Below, piece after piece: positions 12,805 through 58,155 of a DNA stretch of 64,000 bases (position 1 is its first letter; each line of letters starts with the position of its first letter). The stretch covers positions 11,591-75,590 of the forward strand of contig CAYNQX010000017.1 of NCBI GenBank assembly GCA_964399495.1, read 5' to 3'. The position numbers and the translations under genes are program-made. The notes beneath the pieces were generated by a model, which saw only the letters and a program-made list of their open reading frames with translations, made no database searches and was not told the DNA's origin. Source of the stretch: an uncultured bacterium. Lineage in GTDB: Bacteria; Krumholzibacteriota; Krumholzibacteriia; JACNKJ01.

Positions 12805-12844
12805 GGATTTGTAGAAGATCGTGCCCGTGCACGCTCCCCACCCC

Positions 12845-37151: not shown

Positions 37152-37391
37152 TCCCCGCCGTTTCGGCCCCATTCCCCTGTTTCCTGCCAGGTTTAAGCGC
37201 TTCGGGTCCTTTCCTCCGGTTCCTGGATCATCCCCGAGTGGTACGGGCGTTGCTGTTCCCCCACGGATCGGGAATGGAACGATTGCGGCATTGGCCACAA
37301 TGCCGCCAATCCCCGATCCGAATCGGCGATACCCCGGCTCTCGCTGGGGGGACAAGCCCTCTACGATCGAGCGTAAAGAACGGAAGGTTCG

Positions 37392-39116: not shown

Positions 39117-39134
39117 TCGCTCGGCCAATGAACG

Positions 39135-40385: not shown

Positions 40386-40477
40386 GTTTCGTCGGCGGCG
40401 AACGTCGCGGACGAACGAGAGGCAGTGTTTGGTTTGGTTCGTTGTTAGTTAGCGGAATCCACAAGGAGGTCACGACA

Positions 40478-40912: not shown

Positions 40913-40982
40913 AGTCTCGCGGCACGGGACGGGAGCCGGCATGACGCCGGCTCCCTCTCCGGCCACCGAGAAAGGCGATTCG

Positions 40983-41414
40983 ATGCGGCACGAAGCGAGG
41001 AAAGTGGTTCGGCGGAACCGGGCGTTCGACTCGGCGGGGTTCACCCTGCTCGAGGTCGTCGTCGCGGCCACGCTCATCCTGATCCTCTTCTTCGGCCTCG
41101 CGCAGATCTACACGCGCGGACGCGCCCAGATCGACATGGAGGAGAGCCGGCGCAAGGCGACGGCCCTCGTCCAGTCCCGCCTGGAGGGTATCCGCAGCGA
41201 CTTCACCTTCGACACCCTCACCGGTGTCGGCAACGCGGACGGCCAGACGGTCGTCGACAACCGCAGCTTCCAGATCAGCCACACGGCCACGCCCCTGCCC
41301 TCCGGGGAAGAGGCGGCGACCGTCACCGTGGTCGTTTCCTGGGTCGTTCCCGTGAACGGCGGCGTGACGCGATCGGTGAGCGGCACGACCGTGCTGGCCA
41401 GGGGGATGCCGTGA
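40983..41414 (+). CDS. Minor pilin/pseudopilin (prepilin-type N-terminal methylation domain; FimT/PilV-like)
   Basis: ...DSAG|FTLLEVVVAATLILILFFGLAQI. Confidence 0.7.
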   Translation: MRHEARKVVRRNRAFDSAGFTLLEVVVAATLILILFFGLAQIYTRGRAQIDMEESRRKATALVQSRLEGIRSDFTFDTLTGVGNADGQTVVDNRSFQISHTATPLPSGEEAATVTVVVSWVVPVNGGVTRSVSGTTVLARGMP

Positions 41415-41899
41415 ACGAACGCGCACGCGGCATTCCACCCGGCCGCGGAGGCTTCGCCCTCCTCGAGTTGATGATCGCCCTGGTCCTCGGCCTCGTCGTC
41501 GTGCTGGCCATGGGGCGGATCATCCTCGTCAATCAGTCATCCTGGAACATGGGTCGCGACAAGGCCGTGCTCCAGCAGAACGTGAGCGAATCGATGGAGT
41601 GGATGCTCCGGTCGATCCGGGAAGCGGGATCGATCGATCTCGTGAGCAACCAGGAGTTCCGCACCTACGACCGCCAGGCGAACCTGCTCCATGTCTACCG
41701 GCTGGACACGGGCGCCGCGCCCCCCATGCTGCTGCGAGACGGCACCGCGCTGATCGATCGCCGCTGCACCCAGTTCAACGTGGCCGCGAACTCGGACACC
41801 ACCTGTCTCACCATCGATCTCGAGTTCGCCGACGCAACGGACACGCGAGTGGCCGCGTCCGTTCGCGGCACCCTTCGCAATGCGACCCTGGAGTTCTAG
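41411..41899 (+). CDS. Minor pilin PilW-like
   Basis: GG|FALLELMIALVLGLVVVLAMG prepilin motif; 4-nt overlap with the neighbouring genes. Confidence 0.6.
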   Translation: MNERARGIPPGRGGFALLELMIALVLGLVVVLAMGRIILVNQSSWNMGRDKAVLQQNVSESMEWMLRSIREAGSIDLVSNQEFRTYDRQANLLHVYRLDTGAAPPMLLRDGTALIDRRCTQFNVAANSDTTCLTIDLEFADATDTRVAASVRGTLRNATLEF

Positions 41900-41900
41900 C

Positions 41901-43235
41901 ATGGGAACCCGACTTCGCTTCGCATCGCGCATCACCCGCTGGCCGCGGGAGGGCTACGCCCTGCTCACCGCCATGATCTTCGCGCTCGTCATCACCCTGG
42001 CCGGGTTGGCCTTCTTCAGCATCGCCACCTACGAGACGCGCAGCTCGATCAACGCCCATCGCTCGCAGCAGGCCTTCCATATCGCCGACGGCGCCATCGA
42101 ACGCGCCAGGGCCATGCTGCTCGATGACATCACCTGGCAGGCCGGCTGGACCGCCGAAGCCCTGGGCCAGGGAGAGTTCGATCTCACCGTCACGCCGACC
42201 ACCCACCTCGGCCAGCCCGCCCTGAACATGGTGGCCGAAGGCCGGATCGCGAACGCCGCGCGCAGCATCGAGGCGGTGGTGCGCGCCACGCCGAGCGCAT
42301 TCGGCCTGAACGTCCTGGTGGCTGGAGACGCCGACGTGAACGGAAACCTCTGCCTCACCGGCGCGGTGCACGTGGGCGGCGACGGCGATTTCGGCCCCGG
42401 CGACGTCCACCTGGCCTGCGGCGAATACACGGAGGGGTTCGAGGTGTCCCCGCCCCCGGTCCGCACGGAAGCGGGTCAGTACCCCGACGCCACCTACTAC
42501 GAGGTCCGGGGCACGAAGATCGGCAACCAGTATCAGGCCCGCATCTTCGACGGCAACGGCGTCGACATCACCTCCGCCCTGGGCGACAGCCTCGTGGGCG
42601 TGACCTCCTATCACAACGGCTCGAAGAGCTTCACCTTCGACTTCGGCAACAACGCCACCATCCGGAACTACTTCGACGAATCCACCGGCATCTTCCGGCG
42701 GGCGCCCGGCGACCTGGGCGTGGTCGTCAACTTCGGCAGCCCGCCGGTGACGGATCCGCCCGGCATCCTGGGCGTGAGCAACGTCATCCTGGACGGCAAC
42801 GCATCGACCACGGTCACCAGCACCCTCATCAACACACGCTTCACCGGCATCACGGCGGAGCAGCGCCTCGATGCTGCCTTCTGGCAGGGCGGACTGACGA
42901 CGGTGAAGCAGATCACCTTCGAGCCGAGCATGGGCATCGCGCTCATCACCAAGGAGTTCATGAAGTCCGGCGGCTCGCAGGTGGATATCGGCACCTCGGA
43001 CTATCCCGCCCTCGTCTACACCACGGGAGACGTGGTCTCCCTGAACTCGAACTTCGAGCTCTCCGGCAGCCTGATCTGCCTGGGAGACTGGAACAGCTCC
43101 GGGGGTCCGAATCTGTTCTTCGACCCGAGTTTCCAGGCCAACCTGCCCGGCTACCTCGCGTCCTCCTGGAACGCGGGCGTGTCGGGCACCATGCACATTC
43201 TCTCCTGGCGCGAGATCGCCAGCGCGGGGAACTGA
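41901..43235 (+). CDS. PilX-like pilus assembly protein (PilX_N domain)
   Basis: EGYALLTAMIFALVITLAGLAFFSIATYETRSS is typical of the PilX N-terminus. Confidence 0.6.
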   Translation: MGTRLRFASRITRWPREGYALLTAMIFALVITLAGLAFFSIATYETRSSINAHRSQQAFHIADGAIERARAMLLDDITWQAGWTAEALGQGEFDLTVTPTTHLGQPALNMVAEGRIANAARSIEAVVRATPSAFGLNVLVAGDADVNGNLCLTGAVHVGGDGDFGPGDVHLACGEYTEGFEVSPPPVRTEAGQYPDATYYEVRGTKIGNQYQARIFDGNGVDITSALGDSLVGVTSYHNGSKSFTFDFGNNATIRNYFDESTGIFRRAPGDLGVVVNFGSPPVTDPPGILGVSNVILDGNASTTVTSTLINTRFTGITAEQRLDAAFWQGGLTTVKQITFEPSMGIALITKEFMKSGGSQVDIGTSDYPALVYTTGDVVSLNSNFELSGSLICLGDWNSSGGPNLFFDPSFQANLPGYLASSWNAGVSGTMHILSWREIASAGN

Positions 43236-43247
43236 CGGGAGGAACCG

Positions 43248-44201
43248 TTGCGCGGTTCACGAAACATCAGGACGGGCATCGACATCGGGTCGCACAGCGT
43301 CAAGCTGGTGCGCGGCCTCGGCGACCGCGGCCTCGAATCCCTCACCCACCACGGCATCGAGACCTGGGAGGGCGGACGCGACGTCGATCGCGCCGCCGCC
43401 GCGCTCGCATCGCTCATGGAGCGCCTGGAGCTCGACCGACGCAAGCTCGGCCGCCTGGCCACGGCCGTCGACGGCTGGGACGGCAGCTGCCGGGAGGTAG
43501 TGACTCAGGCTCTCGAGGACGAGGAGTTCGCGCGCGCGCTTCCCTACGAGGCCAGGCGGCACCTGAATCTCGAGGGCATGGAGCACCCGGTGATCGCGGG
43601 CCAGGTTCTGGGCCCCGTGGTCGGCGGTCAGGCCGAGGAGGGCAATCGCAACCGCGTGCTGTTGGCCGCCGTGCCGAGGGCCCGCAGGGAGTACGCGCTC
43701 TCGGTGCTCGAACGGATCGGGCTCGAGCCCGAGCTGGTCGATCTCGAGCCGCTGGCGGGACTCAACGCGCTCTTCGCCTCGGGCATCGAGGACGATGGGG
43801 GCAAGGAGGCCATCGGCCTCCTCGATCTCGGCGCGGGGGCCGTCGGCTTCGCCGTGGGTTGCCGCAGCGGCGGCCTGATGAGCCGGGTCGTGGGTTCCGG
43901 TCTCGGGGGGCTGTCGGAGCCCGAGCGTCAGACCTTCATCGCGGCGCTCGTGGATCGCGTCGCGGAGACGATCACCTACTTCCGGGGCCGCTTTCACCGC
44001 AAGGTGCGGTCCGTCGTCCTGTCCGGCAACGGAGCCGGGCTGACCGAGCTCGTGGACAACCTGTCGACCGCGCTGGACTGCGGGGTGCAGGTCGCCGATC
44101 CGCTCGCGCCCTTCGGGTTCGTCCCCGACACCGAGGGCGAGGGCGCGCTCTACGTCACCGCCTGCGGTCTGTGTCAGCGGGGAGGCGCCGCGAATGTATG
44201 A
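43248..44201 (+). CDS. pilM: Type IV pilus assembly protein PilM (actin-like ATPase fold)
   Basis: GIDIGSHSVKLV ... GLLDLGAG ... VVLSGNGAGL; TTG start. Confidence 0.8.
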   Translation: MRGSRNIRTGIDIGSHSVKLVRGLGDRGLESLTHHGIETWEGGRDVDRAAAALASLMERLELDRRKLGRLATAVDGWDGSCREVVTQALEDEEFARALPYEARRHLNLEGMEHPVIAGQVLGPVVGGQAEEGNRNRVLLAAVPRARREYALSVLERIGLEPELVDLEPLAGLNALFASGIEDDGGKEAIGLLDLGAGAVGFAVGCRSGGLMSRVVGSGLGGLSEPERQTFIAALVDRVAETITYFRGRFHRKVRSVVLSGNGAGLTELVDNLSTALDCGVQVADPLAPFGFVPDTEGEGALYVTACGLCQRGGAANV

Positions 44202-44751
44202 GATCAACCTCTACCCCGAGTACGAGCGCAAGCTGAGGGAGTCCCGCCACCAGCGGATCCATGGGGCGATCTTCGGCGCGAGCTTCGGCGTCTCGGCGCT
44301 GATTCTCCTCGTTCTGTTCCTGAGCTCCCACCTGCTTCGCGAGCGCGTGGAGATTCTGCGCGAGTCTACCGCCAGGATGGCCGCGCTCGTCGAGGGCAGC
44401 GCGCAGAACGAGCCCGAACTGCCCGCGGCCAAGGAGCTCCTGAGGCTCCGCCAGCGGAGGATCGACTGGTCGCCCAAGCTTGCGGCACTGGCCGAGGTCA
44501 CGGATCCCACCATCACGCTGACCCGCGTGGACGGGCGACTGCCGGCCAAGGGAATCTCCGCCTCCCTCGAACTGATGGGCGAGCTGGGACCCAGGGCCAC
44601 GCATCTCGAACAGGTCTCCGCGTTCATGAACTCATTGGCCAGCGACCAGCGCGTCTCGCTGCAGTTGCCCGCCGTCGAACTCGGCAACCTCAAGGGTTCA
44701 GAGGACGGACGGTTCATGGTCACCTGCGCCCCCGGCGAAGGGGGTTCCTGA
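44194..44751 (+). CDS. pilN: PilN
   Basis: EINLYPEY followed by a TM segment (PilN N-terminal signature). Confidence 0.7.
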   Translation: MYEINLYPEYERKLRESRHQRIHGAIFGASFGVSALILLVLFLSSHLLRERVEILRESTARMAALVEGSAQNEPELPAAKELLRLRQRRIDWSPKLAALAEVTDPTITLTRVDGRLPAKGISASLELMGELGPRATHLEQVSAFMNSLASDQRVSLQLPAVELGNLKGSEDGRFMVTCAPGEGGS

Positions 44752-45281
44752 TGAATCCGCTCGGCAAGGACAGGCTGCTCTTCGCGGGAACGGGCCTGCT
44801 GCTGCTTCTGGGTCTCGTCGTCGATCTGGCCCTGAACCAGCCGGCGGTCAAGGAGATCCGCCGACTGGAGGCCTATCAGGGGCAACTCATGGGCCAGATG
44901 GCCCAACTCGGCGACCAGCACCATTCGAATCGTGACCTGGCGAAAGCGCTCAAGATCAGCACCCTCGCCGACCTCTCCTCGGAGGGCATGAACGAGGACC
45001 CGGTAGCCTACATCGGCCGATTGCTGGAGCGGTCCGGACTCGAGCGCCTGGAGCTGACGGCCCGGGGCGTCGCCGAAACCGATGTCCTGCGCCTTCATCG
45101 ATTCACGCTGCGAACCCTCGGCGGGTACTCGGCCGTGCAGGGATTCGTGCGCGACCTGGAACTCGGAGAACGACTGGCGACGGTGGACGCGTTCAGCATC
45201 GAAGGCACGGACCGCAGGGAGCGGCTGGAAGGCCGATTCAACCTGACCCTCTACAGCATGATCTCGAAGGGGACGCCATGA
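44751..45281 (+). CDS. pilO: PilO
   Basis: N-terminal TM segment and coiled coil, at the conserved position between pilN and pilP. Confidence 0.6.
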   Translation: MNPLGKDRLLFAGTGLLLLLGLVVDLALNQPAVKEIRRLEAYQGQLMGQMAQLGDQHHSNRDLAKALKISTLADLSSEGMNEDPVAYIGRLLERSGLERLELTARGVAETDVLRLHRFTLRTLGGYSAVQGFVRDLELGERLATVDAFSIEGTDRRERLEGRFNLTLYSMISKGTP

Positions 45282-45775
45282 AGCAGAAGACGCACGGCGA
45301 CCGCTTCTTCTGGCTGGGCTGCGGTCTGGTGGGAATCGTCCTGCTGATCCTCGTGTTCCGCTGCGAGCGCGCCGTCACATCGGTGGTCAGCACGCACTCC
45401 GCCGCGGAGCAGCAGGCGCTTGCGCCCGCCTCCAGCGGAGGAACGATCTACGCCATGGTGGCGATGAAGGACAGCCTCATCGCCAGCGCGGGATCCGTGG
45501 AGAGGGATCCCTTCCTGGTGGTCGAGGCGCCGAAACCGAAGCCGGCGCCACGCAAGGCCAGACCGGCCAAGAAACGTCGACTTCCCGCACCTCCGCGGTT
45601 AACGGCGATCCTGTTCGAGGAAGCCGATCCCATGGTGAAGATCACCGTGGGCTCCACCGTCTCGGGCTGGCTGAGAAACGGAGAAGTCTACAAGGGCTGG
45701 ACGATCGTGAAGATCGAGGAGACGACCGTCGAGGTCCACGACAAACACCGCACTGTGAACCTCAGTGCACGTTAG
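45278..45775 (+). CDS. pilP: PilP-like lipoprotein
   Basis: N-terminal membrane anchor, proline/lysine-rich linker, C-terminal beta domain; assigned mainly by position. Confidence 0.5.
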   Translation: MKQKTHGDRFFWLGCGLVGIVLLILVFRCERAVTSVVSTHSAAEQQALAPASSGGTIYAMVAMKDSLIASAGSVERDPFLVVEAPKPKPAPRKARPAKKRRLPAPPRLTAILFEEADPMVKITVGSTVSGWLRNGEVYKGWTIVKIEETTVEVHDKHRTVNLSAR

Positions 45776-45786
45776 GAGGGCAAGAA

Positions 45787-47097
45787 ATGAAATCTCTGCG
45801 CGATAGGGGACGTCATGCCGCCACCACGGCGCTGGCGATCGGTTTGACCCTGGCGGTGCTGCCGCTGTGGGTCTCGGCGTCGGACGCGACCGAACCCGGA
45901 CTGATCTCCCTGCACGCCAACAATACCCAGGTGAGCGAGATCCTGGAGATCCTGGCCGACCGCAGCGGGCTGAATATCGTGGCCGGTCCGGCGATCCAGA
46001 ATCAGATGATCTCGATCCGGCTCCAGGACACTCCCTTCGAGGAGGCGTTGAACCTGGTGGTGAGGACCATGGGCCTCGGTTACGAGCGGGTGGGCAACTC
46101 GATTCTCGTTACCGACATCCAGTCGCTCGCCGTCAAGACCGGTTTGATCGTCCGCATCTTCGACCTGCAATTCGCCTCCGCGACGAAGGTCGCCGAGATC
46201 CTCGAGATCCTCAGCCGCGACGTCTCCGCGGAAGCCAAGGGCAACCACGTCATCTTCCGCGGCCCCCAGGCGGCGATCCAGCAGGCCGAGGTCATCGTGG
46301 CGCAGCTCGACCGGAAACCCGGCCAGGTGATTCTCGAGGCGCGCCTGATCGAGGTGAACACCACGGCGCTGCTCGAAGCCGGTATCGACTGGGAGTCGAT
46401 CACCGACTGGAGCACCATCATCACCGAGGGCGACCACGGAGCCTCTCCGAAGGGCACCTTCCCCACGGAGATCGCCTACGGCCCCGTCGATGACGGAGTG
46501 CAGCTTCACCGGCAGCTCACGGCTTTCGAACTGGCCGTCGAGGCCCTGATCGCCGACGGCAACGCGCGCCTGCTCTCCAACACGAAGGTCGTGACCCTCG
46601 ACGGTGAACCGGCCGAGATCTTCGCGGGCGACACCGTGCCCGTGGTCATCTCCTCCGTGCAGTCGCCGCAGTCGGCCGGCGCGTCGTTCCAGACCGTCCA
46701 GGTCGAGAAGATCGACGTGGGCGTGCGCCTCGCGATCACGCCGCGCATCAGCGACGACGGCACGGTCACGATGCTCGTCGAGCCCGAGGTCTCCCGCATC
46801 GTCGGCTACGTCGGCCAGTACGAGGATCTGCCCCAGACCTCCACCCGTCGGGCGCGCACCCTGCTGCGCACCGGAGACGGCGAGAAGATCTACATGGGCG
46901 GGCTGATCATCGACGAGGAGCGGGAGACCATCCGAAAGGTGCCCCTGCTCGGCGACATTCCCGTTCTGGGCCACCTGTTCCGTCACGTGAAGCGCGACGT
47001 GAATCGCTTCGACCTGGTCATCGAGATCACCCCGAAGATCGTCGGCGACATGGGCAGCCTGCTGCCCGTGGCTCCCGATATCCTCGGTGGAGAATGA
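45787..47097 (+). CDS. pilQ: PilQ secretin (short form lacking AMIN domains)
   Basis: Secretin domain (VVTLDGEPAEIFAGDTVPV...GGLIIDEE...VPLLGDIPVLGHLF) with a signal peptide. Confidence 0.8.
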   Translation: MKSLRDRGRHAATTALAIGLTLAVLPLWVSASDATEPGLISLHANNTQVSEILEILADRSGLNIVAGPAIQNQMISIRLQDTPFEEALNLVVRTMGLGYERVGNSILVTDIQSLAVKTGLIVRIFDLQFASATKVAEILEILSRDVSAEAKGNHVIFRGPQAAIQQAEVIVAQLDRKPGQVILEARLIEVNTTALLEAGIDWESITDWSTIITEGDHGASPKGTFPTEIAYGPVDDGVQLHRQLTAFELAVEALIADGNARLLSNTKVVTLDGEPAEIFAGDTVPVVISSVQSPQSAGASFQTVQVEKIDVGVRLAITPRISDDGTVTMLVEPEVSRIVGYVGQYEDLPQTSTRRARTLLRTGDGEKIYMGGLIIDEERETIRKVPLLGDIPVLGHLFRHVKRDVNRFDLVIEITPKIVGDMGSLLPVAPDILGGE

Positions 47098-47146
47098 GCC
47101 GACCCGGACGATCGCGTCCGGCCCGGCCAAGGAAGGAAGCACAGGC

Positions 47147-48214
47147 ATGAAGATCGACGACATTCTACGTGAAAGCGTGCGCCAGGACGCCTCGGACATC
47201 ATCATCTCCGCGGGCGCGCCGGTCACCTATCACGTGCACGGCGCGCTGGTGCAGTACGAGCCGGGGAACATCCTCTCGCCGGAGATGAGCCGGGATCTGG
47301 TGTACAGCCTGCTCGACGAGAAGCAGAGACGCCAGTTCGAGGAAGACCTCGAACTCGACATGTCCTACGAGATGGAGCACGTGGCGCGATTCCGCCTGGC
47401 GGTGTACCACCAGCGAGGCACCATCGCGGCGGTGCTGCGGGTGATTCCCATCCAGATCCCCCACTACACCGACGTCGGGCTCAGCACCAACCTGATGAGC
47501 CGGCTGGCGCATATCCCCAACGGACTCGTCCTGGTGACGGGCCCCACGGGCGCCGGCAAGTCCACGACCATCGCGAGCTGGCTCCAGTACCTGAACACCG
47601 AAGGCGAGCGGGCGAAGCACATCATCACCATCGAGGACCCGGTCGAGTACGACTTCGACTCGGAGGTCTGCGTCATCGACCAGCGGGAGCTGGGCACCGA
47701 CACGAAGAGCTACGTCGCGGGGTTGAGGAGCGCCCTCCGCCAGATGCCCCACATCATCTTCGTCGGCGAGATGCGCGACCGCGAGACGATGGAGGTGGCC
47801 CCGACGGCCGCCGAGACGGGCAACCTCGTCATCAGCACGCTCTCGACCCAGTCGTCGGCGAAGACGATCAATCGCATCATCGACGTCTTCCCCCTGAACG
47901 ACCAGGCGGAGATACGCACACGGCTCGCCCTCAGCCTCCGCTGCGTCATCTCCCAGGTGCTGCTCGGCCGACAGGACGAGCCCGGCCGCGTCGCGGCGCG
48001 GGAACTCCTGTTCGTGACGAACTCGGTGGCCAATCTCATCCGTGAGGGAAAGATCCATCAGATCAACAACGTCATTTCCAGCAGCGCGAAGGACGGAATG
48101 GTTCTCCTGGACGACTCGATGATCGAGCTCCAGCGCCTGGGCTTCGTGGCCCGGGCGGACATCCTCCCTCGCTTCCAGGACGCGGACAAGGCCCGCACCC
48201 TGCTGGAGGTTTGA
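47147..48214 (+). CDS. pilT: Twitching-motility retraction ATPase PilT
   Basis: Walker A GPTGAGKST and the PilT-specific AIRNLIRE-like motif VANLIREGKIHQI. Start at MKIDDIL with a GGAAGGA RBS. Confidence 0.9.
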   Translation: MKIDDILRESVRQDASDIIISAGAPVTYHVHGALVQYEPGNILSPEMSRDLVYSLLDEKQRRQFEEDLELDMSYEMEHVARFRLAVYHQRGTIAAVLRVIPIQIPHYTDVGLSTNLMSRLAHIPNGLVLVTGPTGAGKSTTIASWLQYLNTEGERAKHIITIEDPVEYDFDSEVCVIDQRELGTDTKSYVAGLRSALRQMPHIIFVGEMRDRETMEVAPTAAETGNLVISTLSTQSSAKTINRIIDVFPLNDQAEIRTRLALSLRCVISQVLLGRQDEPGRVAARELLFVTNSVANLIREGKIHQINNVISSSAKDGMVLLDDSMIELQRLGFVARADILPRFQDADKARTLLEV

Positions 48215-48235
48215 ACACTTCGACGAGGTGAAGCC

Positions 48236-48967
48236 ATGCTGGCGAATTTCAAGAAACGATATCAGGTGAAGTCGTTCATCCGTTCCTGGCTGGAATATCG
48301 GGCCATCGTGACCCAGGCCATGCAGGATACGGTGACGACGCCGGAGGCGGAGATGCGCTTCCTCAAGCTCAAGGGACGCCTGGCGACGCAGCTGCAGGTG
48401 CTGGCCGAGTCGGCTCCGCCCTCGCTGGCCGCCGAGAATCACCAGGCCTATCGCGAGATCACCGCGATGTTGAGCGCGCAGCGAAGCGTGACGGGCGACG
48501 AAAGCCGCAAGGAGTTCGACGAGGAGGAGTTCGTGCGCACCTGGCACGAGCACTACATCTTCCTGAACAAGCTCCTGGGGGCGCTCCGGATGCAGCGCGA
48601 GGCGGACCACCGCCCCCTGCCCGACGCCCTGCCGACCTGGATGGGCAAGAAGCGGGGACGCTTCCTGTTCAGGCTGGGCAGCCCCGTTCGCAACCTGCTC
48701 GTGGCCGCGGTGCTGATCACCGTGGTCGCCCTGCTCGGCCTGGGCCTCGCGACGCGCTGGGACCCCGGACACGGCCACTTCGTCGCGAAGAGCGACTCCC
48801 CGGTGGCCGAGGCCTACACCGCCGCCTTCAACAGCACCTACGATCTCTGGCAGGGCGTGGTCGGACTCATGGATCCCGTCGTCACGACCTACGGCGCGGC
48901 ATGGACGATGACGCTGCTCATCCTGCTCGCGGCGAGCAGCACGTTCTATCTGATTCTCAAGGTCTAA
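48236..48967 (+). CDS. Hypothetical membrane-anchored protein at the end of the pilus operon
   Basis: 243 aa; soluble N-terminal region, two C-terminal TM segments; no recognisable family. Confidence 0.4.
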   Translation: MLANFKKRYQVKSFIRSWLEYRAIVTQAMQDTVTTPEAEMRFLKLKGRLATQLQVLAESAPPSLAAENHQAYREITAMLSAQRSVTGDESRKEFDEEEFVRTWHEHYIFLNKLLGALRMQREADHRPLPDALPTWMGKKRGRFLFRLGSPVRNLLVAAVLITVVALLGLGLATRWDPGHGHFVAKSDSPVAEAYTAAFNSTYDLWQGVVGLMDPVVTTYGAAWTMTLLILLAASSTFYLILKV

Positions 48968-49043
48968 CCGAGATCCCGGTCGGGATCTCGGGAGGATACG
49001 GGCGCACGACGGATTCCGCCGCGCGCCCGTTTTCCGTTCCGGT

Positions 49044-49190
49044 TCAGCCCGTCTTCTTCTCGGGCAGCGGCCGCACGCTGTTGCTGTGACAGCCCGGGCA
49101 GCTCCGCTCCACCGGTTTCCGGCTGTCGTAGGAACCGGCGTACTCGTGCCCGCAGCGCAGGCAGCGGAAGGTCACCGTCTTCTCAGCCAA
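49044..49190 (-). CDS. Small zinc-ribbon protein (C-x2-C ... C-x2-C), possibly translationally coupled to hdrA
   Basis: ...TFRCLRCGHEY...SCPGCHS... with a TTG or GTG start overlapping the hdrA stop; about 45 aa. Confidence 0.3.
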   Translation of the reverse strand: MAEKTVTFRCLRCGHEYAGSYDSRKPVERSCPGCHSNSVRPLPEKKTG

Positions 49191-51681
49191 GGGGCACCTC
49201 CCTCCTGCTTGACTCGGCCCGGTCCGCGAGCATCTTCGCGCGCTGTTTCTCGCGGCGCTCGTTGATACGCTGGAACTCGGTCGCCACGATCTCCCGCGTC
49301 TCATCGGTCTCCTCGCGCCGGACCGACTTCAGCATCGTCTCGAGCTCCTTCATCACCTTGGCGAACTTGGCGCCCTGGGCGGCGCTGATCCATTCGAGCT
49401 GCAGGCGCTCGGGGCGGATGCCCAGCTTCTCGAGGCGGTTCCACAGCTTCTCGACGCGCTTCTGGGTCCACTGCACCGCGTTGATGTAGTGGCAATCGGC
49501 GAAGTGGCAGCCGCTCACCAGCACCATGCCCGCCCCCTTGCCGAAGGCCTCGAGGACGAAGTCCTCGTCCACGCGGCCGCTGCACATGGTGCGGATGAGC
49601 CGCGAGTGGGCCGGGTACTGGCTGCGGTTCGTGCCGGCCAGGTCGGCGCCCGGATAGGAGCACCAGTTGCAGGCGAAGGTGACCACCTTCTCCCAGGGCT
49701 TCTCCTCGCAGATGGCGTCGATCTGGGCCATGATCTGCTCGTCGGTGTAGTGGCGCATGGCCACCATGTCCGTCGGGCACTCCGCCGCGCAGGTGCCGCA
49801 GCCGGAGCAGGCCGCCTCGATCACCTCGGGGAACCTGCCGGCCTTGCGGTCCGGATCGGTGATGGCGCCGTAGGGGCAGACCTTGCTGCAGATGCCGCAC
49901 TGGGTGCAGAACTCGGTGTCGATGATCGACGTGATCGCCTCGATCTGCACCATGCCCGCGTTCAGCAGGATGCTGGCGCGGCTGGCCGCGGCTCCGGCCT
50001 GGGTGACCGAGTCCTTCACGTCCTTGGGGAACTCGTTGCAGCCGGCGAAGAAAACGCCCCGCGTGGGCGCGTCCACCGGTTTGAGCTTCGGATGGCTCTC
50101 CATGTAGAAGCCGTCGGAGGTGTTGCTCAGGTTGAGCAGCTTCTTCACGATGCCGCCGTCCCGCCGCGGAATCATGCCGCAGGCCAGCACCACCATGTCG
50201 AGTTCGTACTTGCCGAGCGCGTTGGTGGCCGTGTTCTCCACGTCGAGCCACAGGTTCCCCGTGTTCGGATCCTCCCTCACCTCGCCGGGCAGGCCGCGCA
50301 CGTAGCGCACACCCTCCTCCTTGCTGCGGCGGTAGAGGTCCTCGAAGCCCTTGCCGAAGGCGCGCATATCCATGTAGAACACCGTGCTCTCGACATCGGG
50401 GTAGTGGTCGGCGAGCAGCAGCGTGCTCTTGACCGTGTTCATGCAGCAGATGTTGCTGCAGTAGGGGTTGCCCTTCTCACTGAGGGAACGGGAGCCGACG
50501 CACTGGATGAAGCCGATGCGCAGCGGCCGCTCCATGTCGCCCGGCCGCACGAAGTGACCCTCGGTGGGTCCGCCGGCGCAGATGAGCCGCTCGAACTCCA
50601 TGCTCGTGATCACGTTGGGAAAACGCGTGTAGCCGTACTCGTCGTACTCGGTGGGGTCGTACACCTCCGCCCCCGTCGCCACGACCACCGCCCCCACCTC
50701 CACGTTCACGAACTCGTCCTTGGCGTCGTAGTCGATGCAGCGTTTCTCGCACACCTCCTTGCACTTGCCGCAGGCGATCGGGTTGTTGCCGAGGCAGGCG
50801 TCCATGTCGATGAGGAAGCTCGACGGCACCGCCTGCGGGAAGGGCATGTAGATCGCCTTGCGGCTGGAGAAGCCCTGCTGGTAGGCGTCGGGCACCGCGA
50901 CCGGGCACACCTCGGCGCAATCCCCGCAGGCGTTGCAGGCGGTCTCGTCGACGTACTTCGCCCGCCTGCGCACGGTCACGTGGAAGTTGCCCACGAAACC
51001 CGTGACGTTCTCGACCTCGCTATTCGTGAAGAGCTGAATCCGGGGATGTCGACCGACATCCATCATTTTGGGTCCCAGGATTCATATAGAGCAGTCCATC
51101 GTCGGGTAGGTCTTGTCCAGTGCGGCCATGACCCCGCCGATGCTCGCCTCCTTCTCCACGAGATAGACCTGATGGCCCGCGTCGGCCAGATCCAGCGCGG
51201 ACTGGATGCCGGCCACTCCACCGCCGATCACCAGCGCCGCCTTCGTCACCGGCACGCGGGTCTCGGTCTGGGGCTCCAGAAGACGAACGCGGGCGACGCC
51301 CGAGGCCACCAGATCCTTGGCCTTCTGCGTGGCGTCCTCCTTCTGGTCCTGATGCACCCAGCTCACGTGCTCCCGGATGTTCACCATCTCCAGGAGGTAG
51401 GGATTGAGCCCCGCTTCGGAGAGACAGTTCCGGAAGGTGGGCTCGTGGATCTTGGGCGTGCACGACGCCACCACGACGCGGTTGAGCTTGTACTCCTCGA
51501 TCGCGGACTGGATCTCCATCTGACCCGGATCCGCGCAGGTGTACTTGCTCTGCTTCACCACCACCACGTCGGGCAGGGTGGCGGCGAACTCGCTCACCGC
51601 TCCGCAGTCCACCGTGCCGGCGATGTTCTTTCCGCATTCGCAGACGAACACGCCGACGCTGAGATCTCGCATCTTCACCAC
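49183..51681 (-). CDS. hdrA: Heterodisulfide reductase subunit A-MvhD fusion; putative selenoprotein (in-frame TGA at 51082-51084)
   Basis: The N-terminal fragment (51082-51681) has the FAD motif [21 protein letters not shown] and stops as ...TYPTMDCSI[TGA]ILGPKMMDV. The downstream fragment (49183-51066) continues in the same frame. The TGA sits where HdrA homologues have DCSxCILxPK. The C-terminus carries ferredoxin clusters and an MvhD domain ([13 protein letters not shown]...). Confidence 0.8.
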
Positions 51682-52847
51682 GGGTTCTCACCTCCATCCA
51701 TGGCCTCGGCCGCAACCGTCGCAAGGTCGCGGACCTTGAGGCCTTTCAGTTCATCGTCCGCGTCGCCCTCCTGGGCGCAGCGGAAATGGAGCTGGCACTT
51801 GGGGCAGGCGGTGACGAGGGTCTCGGCCCCCCGCTCCACCGCCTCCTTGAGTCTTGTCTCCTGCAAATGTCGGCTCACCGCGTCGCAGTGCAGCCAGCCG
51901 TTGGTTCCGCAGCAGGGCGCCTCCTCGCCGTGCCGCTCGAACTCGCGAAAATCGTCACCGTAGATCCTGTTCAGCACGGCGCGCGCCGCGTCGCCGGCTC
52001 GGAGCTGGCGGCTCAGGCGGCAGGAGTCGTGGAAGCTCACCGTTTCCGCCAGAGGTCTCAGGCTCAGCTCACCGGTCTCGAGTTTGCCCGCCAGGTACTC
52101 GCTGAGGTGCATGACCTCGACGTCCAGCGAGACGCCGAGCGTGGGGTAGACGTCGCGGAGCATGTGCGCGCACTCGGGGCAGGAGGCCACGAGACGGGTC
52201 GCGCCCGTGGCGGCGATCGACTCGGCGTTGCGGCGGGCCAGCTCGGCGGCGGTGGCCTCGTCGCCGCTCCAGTAGAGGTCGTGTCCGCAGCAGCGTTCGC
52301 GGGACATCAACGCCGGCGTCTCGCCGAGGCCGGACAGCAGACGCAGGCTGCTTCTCGCGATCGCGCTGCTGTCGGACTCGAGGTGCGTGAAGTAGGCGTC
52401 GAAGAAAGGCAAGCAGCCGCTGAAGTAGACGAGATCCCCCGTCTCGGCCGCGGGCGCGCCCTTCGGCACCCAGTCGAGCCGACGCTGACCCTTGCCGTCC
52501 CGCGCCATCAGCCGGTGCAGGCTCTCGAGGGCGCCGCCGTGAGAGCAGGGAAAGGGAGTACCGGCGCCCGCAAACTCCTCGCCGCGGCTAAGGCGAGCGA
52601 AGCCGTTGTAGTCCACGTCCGAGGGGCAACGACGCGTGCAGAGCCCGCAGGTCAGACACTGTGCGAGTCGATGGGGAGCCTTCTCCGCCGCCTCGCCGCG
52701 GTCCGCCTGTCCGCTCACCCGGGTGTAGACCAGCAGGCGCGGCGAGAAGTTCTCGTCGTGAAGGGCCACGGGACAGACCGCGGTGCACTTGCCGCAATCG
52801 AGGCAGTAGTAGGCGCGGCTTTCGCGGATACTCGGCGCGAGGCTCAC
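51675..52847 (-). CDS. HdrD/HdrCB-like subunit (2x[4Fe-4S] ferredoxin plus two CCG domains)
   Basis: [25 protein letters not shown], then CCG motifs (...CCGHD..., ...CPKCQ...). Confidence 0.75.
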
Positions 52848-55261
52848 GAGGACACCTCCTGCTCTGCCGGAGCGGGATCGAGGTCGAGGCGTCCCCGACC
52901 GCGCACGCCTTCGATGAAGTCGCCGAGGATCTCGGGCAGCACGTGGATCTCGCCGCGGTGGAAGAGCCTCATGTCGAATCGCTCGGAGTCAACACCCAGC
53001 AGGCCGAGGATCCCCTGGAGCCTGGCGACGTGTCCGAGGAAGGTCTGGTTGCCCGTGCGATAGTGGCACTCCCCCTCGGCGCAGCCGGTGACGAAGACCC
53101 CGTCGGCCCCCGCCTCGAAGGCCGAGAGGATGAAGGCCGGGTGGATCCGACCGGTGCAGAGCGTGTCCATGATTCGCAGGGAGGGCGGCATCTCGTCCAG
53201 ACGAGACGCGGCCAGCGGGAAGCACCAGTTGCAGGAGAGCAGGAGAATGCGCGAGGCGCCCAGGGGCGGATCGGGTGCGAGCAGCGCGGAGATCTCGTCG
53301 ATCATGCCCTGGTGACCGTAGTGGTCCGCGATCATGGCGCCGGTCGGGCAGACCGACGCGCAGCTGCCGCAGCTCTTGCAGAACTCGGGGAACACCCTCG
53401 CCGCCGAACCTCCACCGGTGCCCTCCATGATCCGGATGGCGTCGTAGGGACAGGCGGTCACGCAATCCCCGCAGGCGCGGCAGAGCCGTTCGTCCACCTT
53501 GCACAGCAGGGGCGAGAGCTCCCACTCGCTGCGGTGATCGCCGCCGGCGGCCAGGCCCTGCCCCGGCCAGGTGAGGCTCACCGGACGCGGCTCGAGGGCC
53601 AGGGGGAACTCCTCGGGGTCGTTGGGCACGCGCACCAGCGTAGGTCCCATGGGATGGCCGTTCGTCTCGCCGGCGGGACGCAGGAGCGCGATGCGGTGGC
53701 GGCACTCGTCGGCGCAGCTGCCGCACTCCTGGCAGGGCCCGCAGCGGAGGCAGCGCAGGGCCTCCTCCCTGGCCGCATCCTCGTGGTAGCCGAGCTCCAC
53801 CTCCCGGAACCCTTTGCGCTCCTCGACCGGCAGCACCTGCTGCTGCCTGCGCAGTCGTTTCCGGGGCGAGCGGGGCAGGATGCCCAGTTCCATCGGTCGC
53901 GGCGGCGAGGGCCCCAGCAGAGGACGCCCACGCAGGTAGGCATGAATCGACTCCGCGGCGCGATGGCCCTGAGCGATGGCGCCGATGACGGTGTCGGGGC
54001 CGAGCACGAGGTCGCCGGCGGCGAACACCCCCTCCACGCCGGTGGCCAGCGTGTCCTCGTCGGCCACCAGGGTTCCCCACTTGCTGCGCTCGAAACCGTC
54101 GCCCTTGGGCAGCAGCGAGAAGTCCGCCTCCTGGCTGATGGCGGTGACGATGAGGTCGGCCTTCAGGTCGAAGAACTCGCCTCGGATCGGCACGGGGCGC
54201 GGCCGCCCGCTCTCGTCGGCGGCCACCAGCTTCATGGCCTGGCAGCGCAGGCCCTTGACGCGACCGCCCTTGCCCAGGACCTCCGTGGGCGCGGCGAGGA
54301 AGCGGAACTTCACGCCCTCGCGCTCGGCGTCCTGCACCTCGTCGATGACAGCCGGCATCTCCGAGCGCGTGCGGCGGTAGACCACCGTCACTTTGAGCCC
54401 GAGACGCTTGCCCGTGCGGGCCGCGTCCATGGCGCTCATGCCGCCGCCCACCACGAGCAGGCTCTTGCCCGAAGGCAGGGGCAGCTTGCGCTCGATCATC
54501 CGGAGAAACTGCACGCAGTCGAAGACACCCAGATTCTCCCGCTCGCCGTCCACGCCCAGGCGCTTGCCGAGCTGGGCGCCCACCGCCAGAAGCACGGCGC
54601 CGAAGCCCTCGTCGTGGAGGTCGTCCAGGCTCAGATCGCGACCGAAGGTGACGCCCGTGCGGAACTCGACGCCGAGCTGCGCGATGTGGTTCACCTCTTT
54701 GTGAATCACCCTGCGCGGCAGACGGAACGACGGGATACACTGGTTGAGCATGCCGCCCGGCTCGTCGGCCATCTCGAACAGGGTGACGCCGTAGCCCTCG
54801 CGCACGAGGTCGAAGGCCGCCGCCAGGCCCGCGGGACCGCCGCCCACCACCGCCACGCGCTCTTCGTGGTGGCGAGGCGCCGGGCGCGGAGGCACGCTGG
54901 GGTGTTCGTCCTCCCAGTCGGAGACGAAGCGCTTGAGCAGGCGGATCGCCACGGCCTCGTCCTGTTCGGAGCGCTGGCAGGCCAGCTCGCAGGGGTGGGT
55001 GCAGACCCGGCCGCAGATGCCGGGCAGAGGGCAGCGCTCCCGCACCAGATCCACCGCCTCCTGCATGCGGCCCTGGGCGATGAGTCCGATGTAGCCCTTC
55101 ACGTCCACGCCGGCGGGGCAGGCCGCGTGGCAGGGCGAGTCGGCGAGACGGTGCAGCGAGTAGTTGTGGCCGCCGCCGGGGAACTCGAGCTTCACCGCGC
55201 CGGCGTCCAGGGCATCCCCGAACCCTCCTCGCGACATCGATGTTCCCGCTCCGCCGTACAC
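52844..55261 (-). CDS. HdrL-like large flavoprotein: GltD-type NAD(P)H oxidoreductase fused to a 2x[4Fe-4S] ferredoxin and an MvhD domain
   Basis: 805 aa. Two Rossmann motifs (VVGGGPAGL, VVGGGMSAMD), then CLRCGPCQECGSC / CRACGDCVTACP, and a C-terminal MvhD (LLLSCNWCFPLAASRL...GCAEGECHY). Confidence 0.75.
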   Translation of the reverse strand: MYGGAGTSMSRGGFGDALDAGAVKLEFPGGGHNYSLHRLADSPCHAACPAGVDVKGYIGLIAQGRMQEAVDLVRERCPLPGICGRVCTHPCELACQRSEQDEAVAIRLLKRFVSDWEDEHPSVPPRPAPRHHEERVAVVGGGPAGLAAAFDLVREGYGVTLFEMADEPGGMLNQCIPSFRLPRRVIHKEVNHIAQLGVEFRTGVTFGRDLSLDDLHDEGFGAVLLAVGAQLGKRLGVDGERENLGVFDCVQFLRMIERKLPLPSGKSLLVVGGGMSAMDAARTGKRLGLKVTVVYRRTRSEMPAVIDEVQDAEREGVKFRFLAAPTEVLGKGGRVKGLRCQAMKLVAADESGRPRPVPIRGEFFDLKADLIVTAISQEADFSLLPKGDGFERSKWGTLVADEDTLATGVEGVFAAGDLVLGPDTVIGAIAQGHRAAESIHAYLRGRPLLGPSPPRPMELGILPRSPRKRLRRQQQVLPVEERKGFREVELGYHEDAAREEALRCLRCGPCQECGSCADECRHRIALLRPAGETNGHPMGPTLVRVPNDPEEFPLALEPRPVSLTWPGQGLAAGGDHRSEWELSPLLCKVDERLCRACGDCVTACPYDAIRIMEGTGGGSAARVFPEFCKSCGSCASVCPTGAMIADHYGHQGMIDEISALLAPDPPLGASRILLLSCNWCFPLAASRLDEMPPSLRIMDTLCTGRIHPAFILSAFEAGADGVFVTGCAEGECHYRTGNQTFLGHVARLQGILGLLGVDSERFDMRLFHRGEIHVLPEILGDFIEGVRGRGRLDLDPAPAEQEVSS

Positions 55262-55285
55262 TGCGCACCTCCCCGGCGCTCGTGG

Positions 55286-55840
55286 TCAGACCACGGCCGT
55301 CATCTGGGCCCGGCCGTGGGCCAGGCCGGCCTCGAAGGCCTTCAGGTTGAGTTCCTCGGTGCCCGACGGCACCGACGCCGCCACCGCCTTCCTGGCCGCC
55401 TCCTCGTCGACGATCCCGGTGACGGCCGTGAAGAAGCCCACCATCACGATGTTCTGGATCAACTTGCGGCCCAGCTCTTCGGCCATCCGCGTGGAGGGAA
55501 TGCGGAACACGTGAACGCCGGCCGGCGGGTCGTCGACCTGCACGAGCTCCTCCTCGATGAGCAGCAGACCGCCCTCCTTCAGCTCGGGGCTGAACTTGCT
55601 GTACGCCTCCTGGCTCATGCAGATGAGCACGTTCGGCGCGCTGACGTAGGGGTAGAGGATCGGATCCGTGTTCACGACGAGCTGCGCGCTGCAGGCGCTG
55701 CCCCGCGCCTCGGGCCCGAAGCTCTGCGTGAGCGTGGCGTGACCCTCGTCGAAGATGGACGCGGCCTTGCCGATGATGATGCCCATCAGGATCACGCCCT
55801 GGCCGCCGAAGCCGCCGATCTTAACTTCGCTGGTCTGCAC
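55286..55840 (-). CDS. 2-oxoacid:ferredoxin oxidoreductase gamma subunit
   Basis: 184 aa; IGGFGGQGVILMG...; GTG start overlapping the beta-subunit gene. Confidence 0.85.
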   Translation of the reverse strand: MQTSEVKIGGFGGQGVILMGIIIGKAASIFDEGHATLTQSFGPEARGSACSAQLVVNTDPILYPYVSAPNVLICMSQEAYSKFSPELKEGGLLLIEEELVQVDDPPAGVHVFRIPSTRMAEELGRKLIQNIVMVGFFTAVTGIVDEEAARKAVAASVPSGTEELNLKAFEAGLAHGRAQMTAVV

Positions 55841-56720
55841 AGCAGCAACCTCCGTACTCCTCGTACGCGTCGCCGAACCGCGACCGGTACTGGTCGTTCA
55901 TCCGCTCCAGGAAAGTGGGACGGCTCTTCTCCACGAACTCGCCGCAGATGATCTTCTGCTGGTAGTCGATGTCCACGTCCCGCGTGTTCGCCCCGTGCTT
56001 GATCTCCGTGGAGTCCTGGTAGAATTTCAGCAGGCTGCGTCCGTCGCCGAGCTTGTTCCGGCGTCCGTAGAGCGTGGCGCAGGGAGCGATGACCTCGAGA
56101 AAGGTGAAGCCGGGCAGCGTCAGGGCCTTCACCATCGAGTCGATGAGGCGCCGGAAGTGCAGCACCGTCCAGCGCGCCACGTACACCGCCCCGCAGGACT
56201 CGGCGAGGAAGGGCAGGTTGAAGGGCGCGTCGTAGCTGCCGAAGGGCGCCGTGGAGGCGATGGCCGTCGTGGGCGTGGTCGGCCCCTGCTGGCCGCCGGT
56301 CATCGCATAGGTGAAGTTGTTCACGCAGATGCAGACGAGATCCTGGTTGCGCCTCGCGGCATGGATGAAGTGGTTGCCGCCGATCGCCGTGAGATCGCCG
56401 TCGCCGCTGAACACCACCACCTTGAGCTCCGGCCGCGACAGCTTGAGCCCCGTGGCGAAGGGGATCGGACGGCCGTGGGTGGTGTGGTAGGAATCCAGGT
56501 TCATGTAACCCGCCACGCGCCCCGTGCAGCCGATTCCCGACACGATGGATACCATGTCGGGATCGAGCCCCGCCTTCTCGACGGCCGCCGCGAAACAGTT
56601 CACCGCGGTGCCGATGCCGCAGGAGGGGCACCAGATGTGCGGCATCCGGTCCATGCGCAGCATGGATTCCATGGGATGCTCGGGACTCGCCTCGATTTCG
56701 CTCAGGATGTCTGTCGACAC
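55821..56720 (-). CDS. 2-oxoacid:ferredoxin oxidoreductase beta subunit (TPP-binding)
   Basis: WCPSCGIG ... GDGD..AIGGNH (TPP motif). GTG start with GGAGG. The track ORF is over-extended into the alpha-subunit gene. Confidence 0.85.
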   Translation of the reverse strand: MSTDILSEIEASPEHPMESMLRMDRMPHIWCPSCGIGTAVNCFAAAVEKAGLDPDMVSIVSGIGCTGRVAGYMNLDSYHTTHGRPIPFATGLKLSRPELKVVVFSGDGDLTAIGGNHFIHAARRNQDLVCICVNNFTYAMTGGQQGPTTPTTAIASTAPFGSYDAPFNLPFLAESCGAVYVARWTVLHFRRLIDSMVKALTLPGFTFLEVIAPCATLYGRRNKLGDGRSLLKFYQDSTEIKHGANTRDVDIDYQQKIICGEFVEKSRPTFLERMNDQYRSRFGDAYEEYGGCCCADQRS

Positions 56721-57874
56721 GCGTTCGCCTCCCTGATTTGCTCGAGGATCTGCTCCGGCTCGTGCACGGTGCCGCCGCCGTGACCGGCGAGGAAGGTCTT
56801 CGCCCGCCCGGCGGCGCAGCGCTCCACCTCGTAGAAGATCTGTCCGTAGTTGAGTTCGGCGACGACGAAGGCGTCGACCCGTTCGGCGAGCTCGGCGATG
56901 CGGCGTTCGGGGAAGGGCCACAGGGTGACGAGCCGCAGGGTCCCCACGCGGATCCCCTCCTCCTTCGCGAGCTGCACGGCCCTCTCGGTGACGCGGCTCG
57001 TGATGCCGTAGGACAGCACCACGACGTCGGCGTCCTCGACCTCCCGCTCCTCGATCCGGATGATCTCCTCGGCGCTCAGGCGGATCTTGTCCACCAGGCG
57101 CCGCACCAGTTTCTCCTGGGCCTCGGGCGTCACCACCGGGTAGCCGCGCTCGTCGTGGGTGAGGCCGGTCACGTGCATGCGGTGGCCGTCGCCGGCCTTG
57201 CCCATGGGCGGCACCATGTCCGCGTCCGCCGCAAAGGGCAGGTAGTCCTTGCCCTTCTTGTCCGTCCAGCGGCGGGGCTCCACCGTGAGCGTTTCCGCCT
57301 CGGGAATCACGACCTTCTCGGTCATGTGGCCGACGCACTCGTCCATCATGAACATCACCGGCACGCGATAGCGCTCCGACAGATTGAAGGCGTCGATCAT
57401 CAGGTCGAAGCACTCCTGAGGCGAGCTGGGCGAGATCGCGATGATCTCGTAGTCGCCGTGGCTGCCCCAGCGCGCCTGCATGACGTCGGCCTGGCCCGTG
57501 AGCGTGGGCAGGCCGGTCGACGGCCCGCCGCGCTGCACGTTGACGAACACGCAGGGCGTCTCGGTCATCACCGCCAGGCCGATGTGCTCCATCATCAGGG
57601 AGAAGCCGGGGCCGCTGGTGACGGTCATCGCCTTCGCCCCGCCCCACACCGCGCCCTGGATGGCGATGGAGCTGGCGAGCTCGTCCTCCATCTGGATGAA
57701 CATCGCGCCCACCTCGGGGGCGCGGGCGCTGTAGCGTTCCACGACCTCGGTGGAGGGCGTGATGGGATAGCCGGCCACGAAGCGGCAGCCCGCGGCCAGC
57801 GCGCCCTCGCAGGCGGCGTGGTCGCCGTCGAGGAAGTGGATGCCGGTGAGCACGCCCTTGGGGTCCGCCTTCAT
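56702..57874 (-). CDS. 2-oxoacid:ferredoxin oxidoreductase alpha subunit
   Basis: About 390 aa from MKADPKG (GGAGG RBS); GYPITPSTEV and TSGPGFSLM motifs. Confidence 0.85.
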   Translation of the reverse strand: MKADPKGVLTGIHFLDGDHAACEGALAAGCRFVAGYPITPSTEVVERYSARAPEVGAMFIQMEDELASSIAIQGAVWGGAKAMTVTSGPGFSLMMEHIGLAVMTETPCVFVNVQRGGPSTGLPTLTGQADVMQARWGSHGDYEIIAISPSSPQECFDLMIDAFNLSERYRVPVMFMMDECVGHMTEKVVIPEAETLTVEPRRWTDKKGKDYLPFAADADMVPPMGKAGDGHRMHVTGLTHDERGYPVVTPEAQEKLVRRLVDKIRLSAEEIIRIEEREVEDADVVVLSYGITSRVTERAVQLAKEEGIRVGTLRLVTLWPFPERRIAELAERVDAFVVAELNYGQIFYEVERCAAGRAKTFLAGHGGGTVHEPEQILEQIREANACRQTS

Positions 57875-58155
57875 CGCGCCACCTCCTCGGCCGCCGCGTC
57901 GGGGGCGGGATCGCAGAAGATCGCGAACTCCGGGCAGATCATCTCGCAGAGATCGCAGTTGACGCAGAGTTCGGCCTGTTTGGTGAAGGGCGGGTGATAG
58001 CCCTTGGCGTTGAACTCCTCGGAGAGCTCGAGGACGTCTCGCGGGCAGTAGTCGACGCAGAAGCCGCAGCCCTTGCATCGCTCGCGGATGATCGTGACCT
58101 CGCCTCGCGGCAGGTTCAGCTTGTCGCTGTCGAAGGGCTCTCGCCAGAGTTTCAT
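57871..58155 (-). CDS. 2-oxoacid:ferredoxin oxidoreductase delta subunit (2x[4Fe-4S] ferredoxin)
   Basis: 94 aa from MKLWREP: CKGCGFCVDYCP and CVNCDLCEMICP; GGAGG RBS. Confidence 0.8.
   Translation of the reverse strand: MKLWREPFDSDKLNLPRGEVTIIRERCKGCGFCVDYCPRDVLELSEEFNAKGYHPPFTKQAELCVNCDLCEMICPEFAIFCDPAPDAAAEEVAR

Follow-up and report, generated by a model that had tools for sequence, protein, structure and literature searches.

We analyzed a 64,000-nucleotide stretch of DNA (referred to as the window here) from an uncultured bacterium of the phylum Krumholzibacteriota (contig CAYNQX010000017.1, positions 11,591 to 75,590) and focused on two minus-strand open reading frames (ORFs) that together correspond to hdrA, the gene for the flavoprotein of heterodisulfide reductase. 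We conclude, with a probability of roughly 93%, that the two ORFs are one gene encoding an HdrA2-type HdrA-MvhD flavoprotein, in which codon 200, a UGA, specifies selenocysteine (Sec). The observations that carry this reading, all of which are established by our analysis, are the identity of the gene, the alignment of the UGA with a conserved cysteine, the alternation of Sec and Cys codons across species, and selection on an RNA structure just downstream of the UGA.

A UGA codon at a conserved cysteine of HdrA

The ORFs at 51082–51681 (199 amino acids) and 49183–51066 (627 amino acids) lie in one shared frame on the minus strand, and, as an initial annotation of this DNA had pointed out, nothing but the TGA at 51082–51084 splits them. 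Translation through this codon gives 832 codons with the TGA as the sole internal stop. On the minus strand, the sequence around and beyond it reads GAC TGC TCT ATA TGA ATC CTG GGA CCC AAA ATG ATG GAT GTC GGT CGA CAT CC. The features of the gene are as follows:

49183–51681, minus strand: coding sequence of an HdrA-MvhD fusion (HdrA2-type), 832 codons including the UGA, supported by translation, phmmer, Pfam, and NCBIfam
51681 and 51672, minus strand: start codons, the called GTG and an alternative ATG, respectively
51082–51084, minus strand: in-frame UGA, predicted to be read as Sec; residue 200, the U of a CxxU motif (C-S-I-U)

To identify the product, we compared the read-through protein with proteins of known structure and with family models. 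With phmmer, HdrA of the structure 5ODC (5odc_A) aligned to residues 6 to 657 with an E value of 1.7e-229, and MvhD chains matched the C-terminal ∼120 residues (663 to 785). Pfam likewise placed a FlpD/MvhD domain (PF02662) at residues 666 to 785, in addition to Fer4/ferredoxin and flavin adenine dinucleotide (FAD) domains. The NCBIfam model NF040770.1 (“HdrA2”) gave 1155.4 bits, which is above its curated cutoff of 1100 bits, and the match covered profile positions 2 to 775 of 777.

In the alignment with 5odc_A, the TGA at residue 200 pairs with Cys197 (ndcsiCilapkm) within an ungapped block, and the motif around the site is DCSI-C/U-ILxPK. The TGA therefore falls on a conserved cysteine of HdrA, as the initial annotation had proposed. 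For a comparative set, we scanned one genome per species and retained 80 loci from about ten phyla, including Zixibacteria, Calditrichota, Marinimicrobia, Planctomycetota/Phycisphaerae, Acidobacteriota, Chloroflexota, Gemmatimonadota, Ignavibacteria, and others. Across these 80 other species, the homologous codon was TGA at 77 sites and TGT or TGC at 4 (loci L059, L063, L074, and L085), and it was TAA or TAG at none. Downstream of the codon, the frame stays open at 60 to 70% identity in the 80 loci. Because TGA alternates only with Cys codons and the frame is conserved beyond it, the site carries the classical Sec/Cys signature. The best 120 database matches to the N-terminal part, which have 77 to 96% identity and a length of ∼200 amino acids, all end in DC[SY]I, and gene callers thus stop at the same place in 120 of the 120 cluster representatives listed.

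The initial annotation had also raised the worry that the TGA is a base-calling error. That it stands for TGC or TGT through faulty sequencing or assembly is possible a priori, and there is nothing more in its favor. The split into 199 and 627 amino acids recurs on 23 contigs from several separate metagenome assemblies, whose sources include JGI 3300013112, 3300007511, 3300007770, and 3300007510 as well as two ENA assemblies, and the 84 nucleotides surrounding the TGA are identical across those JGI and ENA contigs. With one and the same sequence on 23 contigs, assembled independently from six or more samples, and with a TGA at this site in 76 other species, the worry is removed, and we regard an error of this kind as practically negligible.

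A different explanation is that the TGA is a true stop, either of a pseudogene or of a split gene in which a 199-amino-acid protein is followed by a 627-amino-acid protein initiated at the ATG at 51066. In agreement with this, gene callers in all source assemblies give two genes of 199 and 627 amino acids, and an ATG is located 15 nucleotides past the TGA. However, the break sits within the FAD-binding domain, at the cysteine that serves as a cluster ligand, and the ILGPK stretch encoded from the TGA to the ATG (five codons) is conserved at the protein level in all species. The stop is, moreover, always TGA and alternates solely with Cys codons, and the hairpin described below is under purifying and compensatory selection in the TGA forms only. 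Taken with these points, a true stop is very unlikely.

Read-through could also take place without Sec, through a genetic code in which TGA has a sense meaning (Trp or Gly) or through near-cognate suppression that inserts Cys or Trp. Near-cognate UGA suppression occurs in bacteria, and the window alone is compatible with a genome without Sec machinery. Nevertheless, TGA is the stop codon of most of the reading frames in the window with a high G+C content at third codon positions. One of these genes is lipA, which ends in TGA and encodes a 290-amino-acid product of the same length as its homologues; the nearest named relative of this LipA is from Krumholzibacteriota (65% identity). This agrees with the earlier statement that TGA is an ordinary stop elsewhere in the window, and it excludes a reassigned genetic code. 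In addition, there is only one in-frame TGA in the 832 codons of hdrA, the aligned residue is Cys rather than Trp or Gly, and a conserved GGUC hairpin at the distance expected of a Sec insertion sequence (SECIS) would be left unaccounted for. We therefore consider read-through without Sec to be just as improbable as a true stop, and insertion of Sec at codon 200 to be the preferred reading of the UGA.

Other same-frame TGA junctions of the window were considered as further selenoproteins and rejected. Those near 6502, 25818, 26292, 34338, 43235, 48214, 55285, and 59217 each part two unrelated Pfam families, which marks them as ordinary neighboring genes.

We also observed a restricted codon context at the site (51079–51087, minus strand). 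The Ile codon before the UGA is the rare AUA in 70 of the 74 distinct TGA forms, even in the present genome with its 68% G+C, and the base 3′ of the UGA is invariably A in the TGA forms (Ile, AUH). In the Cys forms, Val (GUN) follows the Cys in 4/4, and AUA precedes it in 2/4. The context AUA-UGA-A may represent an extra sequence requirement for Sec insertion.

Two loci of the comparative set deserve a separate mention. In a metagenome-assembled genome (MAG) of Candidatus Sulfomarinibacteraceae (L045), there are two Sec-type hdrA copies, at 4582 and 8522 and thus ∼4 kb apart, both of which carry the TGA and a GAUGCC-GGUC-GGCAUC hairpin. In a Chloroflexia MAG with a Cys form (L074, ∼4620–4660), the frame appears to shift just past the motif, giving the peptide GKHPQHRADG, while the nucleotides past the motif still resemble AACATCGAGCTGATGG of other loci; downstream, the tblastn coverage of this locus amounts to 174 amino acids only. 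This shift may be due to an indel, a pseudogene, or an assembly error.

A hairpin under selection downstream of the UGA

The initial annotation described a hairpin with a GGUC loop 20 nucleotides past the UGA, comparable to a bacterial SECIS, and we found it as described:

51044–51061, minus strand: putative SECIS hairpin GGAUGUC-GGUC-GACAUCC, with a 7-bp stem here, of which 6 bp are conserved
51035–51084, minus strand: possible extended lower helix enclosing the SECIS hairpin, seen in the minimum free energy (MFE) fold of the window (−19.2 kcal/mol), in this organism only

Its 5′ arm (GGAUGUC) occupies 51061–51055, its loop (GGUC) 51054–51051, and its 3′ arm (GACAUCC) 51050–51044. The spacer between UGA and hairpin is 20 nucleotides, and together with the 7-nucleotide 5′ arm this places the loop 27 nucleotides from the UGA. 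On its own, the hairpin folds at −9.4 kcal/mol, and the variant with GCC/GGC arms folds at −11.5 kcal/mol. The published consensus for bacterial SECIS elements comprises a loop of 3 to 9 nucleotides, an upper stem of 4 to 16 bp, a G at one or both of loop positions 1 and 2 (pattern G[G|U]), a distance of 16 to 37 nucleotides from UGA to loop, and an MFE of no more than −7.5 kcal/mol (PMC13188914). The hdrA hairpin lies within all of these constraints, with its 4-nucleotide loop on a 7-bp stem, a loop that opens with GG followed by U, a distance of 27 nucleotides, and the folding energy given above. By chance, a perfect 7-bp hairpin with an early loop G would be expected in an allowed position with a frequency of ∼1.8%, as estimated from its frequency in the window.

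The evidence for the hairpin from this single sequence is weak by itself; the comparative evidence is decisive. We aligned the hairpin region of 76 TGA-form sequences, 74 of them distinct. Among the TGA forms, 95.4% of the helix cells are paired. The inner 6 bp of the stem are universal, and the outer G-C pair is shared by 50 of the 74 distinct sequences. A compensatory pair is found at alignment columns 41 and 48, where CG occurs in 36 sequences, UA in 33, and UG in 4, with 1 unpaired. In terms of codons, this covariation combines Val GUC with Arg CGA, and Ala GCC with the synonymous Arg CGG. The GGUC loop is near-invariant (GGUA in two sequences), and its G43, G44, and T45 are invariant in all 76.

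Constraint at the nucleotide level is also apparent from synonymous positions. Within the hairpin, the codons for Asp, Val/Ala, Gly, and His have an entropy of 0 bits at their third positions, compared to ∼1.9 bits at the flanking four-fold sites of adjacent codons (Gly, Pro, Arg, and Leu). In the four Cys forms, the D-V/A/I-G-R/K-H-P peptide is retained but is specified by other codons, and there is no hairpin; their equivalent segments fold at just −0.6 to −3.7 kcal/mol. This shows that the hairpin is under selection and that this selection is tied to the presence of the UGA.

Two related structures were tried as candidates and rejected. The lower helix formed by UGAAUCC (51084–51078) and GGAUUCA (51041–51035), which would enclose the hairpin, has 57.7% of its cells paired across species and no real covariation, and it probably does not belong to the conserved element. 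A second GGUC-loop hairpin, with a 6-bp stem, is located inside hdrA near 49684 (minus strand), but it has no upstream in-frame TGA and was dismissed as a chance occurrence.

Several points have to be weighed against the assignment of Sec to residue 200. Neither Pfam searches of the ∼40 reading frames nor ARAGORN detected selA, selB, selD, or tRNA-Sec in the 64-kb window, and the 10 kb upstream of the window, on a 109-kb ENA scaffold, contained no sel genes; in 60 related loci, no tRNA-Sec was found beside hdrA. Since the window is a small part of the genome, missing sel genes do not weigh against the Sec claim. The 71-nucleotide local fold has a z score of −1.21, which is statistically unexceptional for a single sequence. 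The hairpin had no Rfam match in a scan of 50950–51150, even at E values up to 10; the empty result of so permissive a scan indicates that Rfam has no model that recognizes the hdrA SECIS. Finally, Sec incorporation at residue 200 is deduced from sequence comparison.

Proposed decoding, role of Sec, and genomic context

By analogy with established Sec decoding, we envisage that the mRNA hairpin GGAUGUC-GGUC-GACAUCC would act as a bacterial SECIS when the ribosome is at the UGA. SelB, loaded with GTP and Sec-tRNA(Sec), would recognize the G and U that are exposed in the apical loop and then bring the charged tRNA into the A site, where it would compete with release factor 2.

The position of the residue points to its possible function. 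In HdrA, Cys197 extends across the dimer and, as the fourth ligand, completes the coordination of the partner protomer's N-terminal [4Fe-4S] cluster (PMC9012536). Following this 5ODC-based description, Sec200 would bind the same cluster of the other protomer, which lies on the way to ferredoxin, so that the selenolate most likely coordinates an Fe-S cluster on the low-potential branch, the one leading to ferredoxin, of a complex that performs flavin-based electron bifurcation. A point to be set against this role is that it is carried over by alignment from an archaeal enzyme with Cys. More tentatively, and with more doubt than confidence, one could suppose that, in this bacterial HdrA2 clade, the Sec serves no catalytic redox purpose but is functionally required to bind the N-terminal [4Fe-4S] cluster across the dimer through its selenium. 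On this view, hdrA would have been transferred laterally together with its SECIS, as a cassette, among uncultured anaerobes. The presence of Sec at 77 of 81 sites in about ten phyla, together with the near-frozen SECIS and AUA-UGA-A context, would fit both required selenium ligation and lateral spread of a cassette.

With regard to its genetic neighborhood, hdrA is the last gene of a same-strand run that covers 51675–58155 and then hdrA itself. The other members of this run are as follows:

51675–52847, minus strand: fused HdrC/HdrB-like protein with a 4Fe-4S dicluster and two CCG domains (Pfam CCG PF02754, Fer4)
52844–55261, minus strand: GltD/NfnB-like NAD(P)H flavoprotein fused to a ferredoxin domain and MvhD (Pfam Fer4_20, Pyr_redox_2, Fer4_7, FlpD)
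55286–58155, minus strand: delta, alpha, beta, and gamma subunits of a 2-oxoacid:ferredoxin oxidoreductase (Pfam POR, POR_N, PFOR_II)

The end of the HdrCB-like gene overlaps the start of hdrA, and such a gene lies directly upstream of hdrA in 66 of the 80 related loci. The GltD-like fusion matches the NCBIfam model NF009410 (NAD(P)-binding protein) with 497 bits and has a tblastn match, often a partial one, in 77 of the 80 loci. Both this protein and the HdrCB-like protein show subthreshold similarity to NCBIfam NF045663 (“diclust_near_Sec”). For the oxidoreductase, the genes called on locus L001 contain Fer4, POR_N, TPP_enzyme_C, and POR domains. The region thus has the gene content of an HdrABC-type system, with an HdrA flavoprotein, a CCG-domain partner, and MvhD modules encoded together. 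Judging from the domain content, the complex presumably consists of HdrA-MvhD, the HdrCB-like protein, and the GltD-like-MvhD fusion, and the genes that share the operon with hdrA point to a complex that bifurcates or confurcates electrons with NAD(P)H and ferredoxin.

Downstream of hdrA, we found a perfect 8-bp palindromic hairpin, GAGATCCC-GGTC-GGGATCTC, at 48970–48989. It sits between the convergent ends of a plus-strand gene (48236–48967) and hdrA (stop at 49183, minus strand) and is probably a bidirectional terminator; it follows no in-frame TGA, and its GGUC loop is a coincidence. Directly downstream of hdrA, on the opposite strand, a large type IV pilus/type II secretion cluster extends over 37000–48967, with PilM, a secretin, a T2SSE ATPase, T2SSF, and an N-methyl pilin.

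Additional redox genes are located further away in the window. At 2590–6502 (minus strand), a second CCG-domain Fe-S protein (GlcF/HdrD-like, 416 amino acids) is followed by an FAD-linked oxidase with two FAD_binding_4 stretches (a GlcD/GlcE-like fusion of 868 amino acids), and the pair resembles a glycolate or D-lactate oxidase system. Adjacent genes at 14564–16925 (plus strand) encode a DHODB-type Fe-S binding domain and a GltD/NfnB-like protein (Fer4_20 plus Pyr_redox_2); they resemble NfnAB or sulfide dehydrogenase and form a second NAD(P)H/ferredoxin module in the window. The sole match of a whole-window Rfam scan at gathering thresholds was a cobalamin riboswitch (RF00174, 94 bits) at 12860–13059 (minus strand), which immediately precedes a gene (10651–12846) for a TonB-dependent receptor that has a Plug domain.

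Relation to known selenoproteins and significance

The HdrA family of CxxU selenoproteins is well established for methanogens, Deltaproteobacteria, and Clostridia (PMC1794560, PMC13188914), which confirms the initial annotation's remark that HdrA selenoproteins were already known. Sec-containing HdrA was catalogued for Deltaproteobacteria and Clostridia in 2006, with 16 bacterial members of this selenoprotein family (Table 1 of PMC1794560), and reviews list NF040770 for the “heterodisulfide reductase alpha subunit, CxxU, one Sec” (PMC13188914, PMC9312934). A 2025 survey noted that some methanogen hdrA genes look partial because Sec is misread as a stop (PMC12054007). Known Sec-HdrA proteins include those of Methanococcales, Syntrophobacter fumaroxidans, Syntrophus, Moorella, and Carboxydothermus. 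The protein described here shares with them the family and domain order, a single Sec in a C-x-x-U motif at the Cys197 position, the existence of Sec/Cys homologue pairs, and a bacterial SECIS within the coding sequence just past the UGA. It differs in its host, an uncultured marine bacterium with a G+C content of ∼68%, and in its gene neighborhood. Unlike in the classical archaeal/deltaproteobacterial operon, hdrA is not located beside the hydrogenase genes frhD/frhG/frhA but instead adjoins the HdrCB-like fusion, the GltD-like-MvhD fusion, and the 2-oxoacid:ferredoxin oxidoreductase.

The HdrA2 subclass, defined by the HdrA-MvhD fusion, was first characterized in Methanosarcina acetivorans and has bacterial homologues; in this archaeon, HdrA2 (MA2868) is a subunit of the ferredoxin/F420H2-dependent electron-bifurcating complex HdrA2B2C2 (PMC5296606). 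Our protein resembles MA2868 in its C-terminal MvhD fusion, its full-length match to NF040770, and its predicted cofactors (FAD, 4Fe-4S clusters, and one 2Fe-2S cluster). In contrast to MA2868, for which Sec goes unmentioned in PMC5296606, it contains the predicted Sec; as partners it has one HdrCB-like fusion protein and a flavoprotein of the NAD(P)H type, and CoM-S-S-CoB is not expected as a substrate in a bacterium that is not a methanogen. We also compared our protein with HdrA of the HdrABC-MvhAGD complex of Methanothermococcus thermolithotrophicus (5ODC). Both have the N-terminal Fe-S domain with a conserved equivalent of Cys197, but the 5ODC protein has Cys rather than Sec at this position, its MvhD is a separate subunit, and it is partnered by a [NiFe] hydrogenase and by HdrB and HdrC as individual subunits.

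With regard to the RNA element, the hdrA hairpin is similar to the SECIS of Escherichia coli fdhF and to the bSECISearch model in that it is a stem-loop within the ORF that directly follows the UGA and whose apical loop is small and opens with G-G/U. We take the fdhF apical loop to be GGUC, the same as that of the hdrA hairpin, and to lie presumably ∼18 nucleotides from the UGA, versus 27 nucleotides in hdrA. Unlike the fdhF element, the upper stem of the hdrA hairpin has no bulged U, and its sequence is set by the conserved peptide D-V/A-G-R-H-P.

This hdrA is very probably a real selenoprotein gene and a member of a known family, and it leaves the current understanding unchallenged. What it adds is modest: a SECIS consensus for the clade, Sec as the majority state across many uncultured phyla, and the near-invariant AUA-UGA-A context. 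The consensus, UGA-N21-GAUGYC-GGUC-GRCAUC, is reusable, and the Sec form is dominant across Zixibacteria, Calditrichota, Marinimicrobia, Planctomycetota, Acidobacteriota, Chloroflexota, and Gemmatimonadota. With regard to annotation, all assemblies with this hdrA gene list two truncated proteins, of 199 and 627 amino acids. Joining the two halves restores a complete HdrA2-type electron-bifurcating flavoprotein and marks the organism as a probable selenium user.

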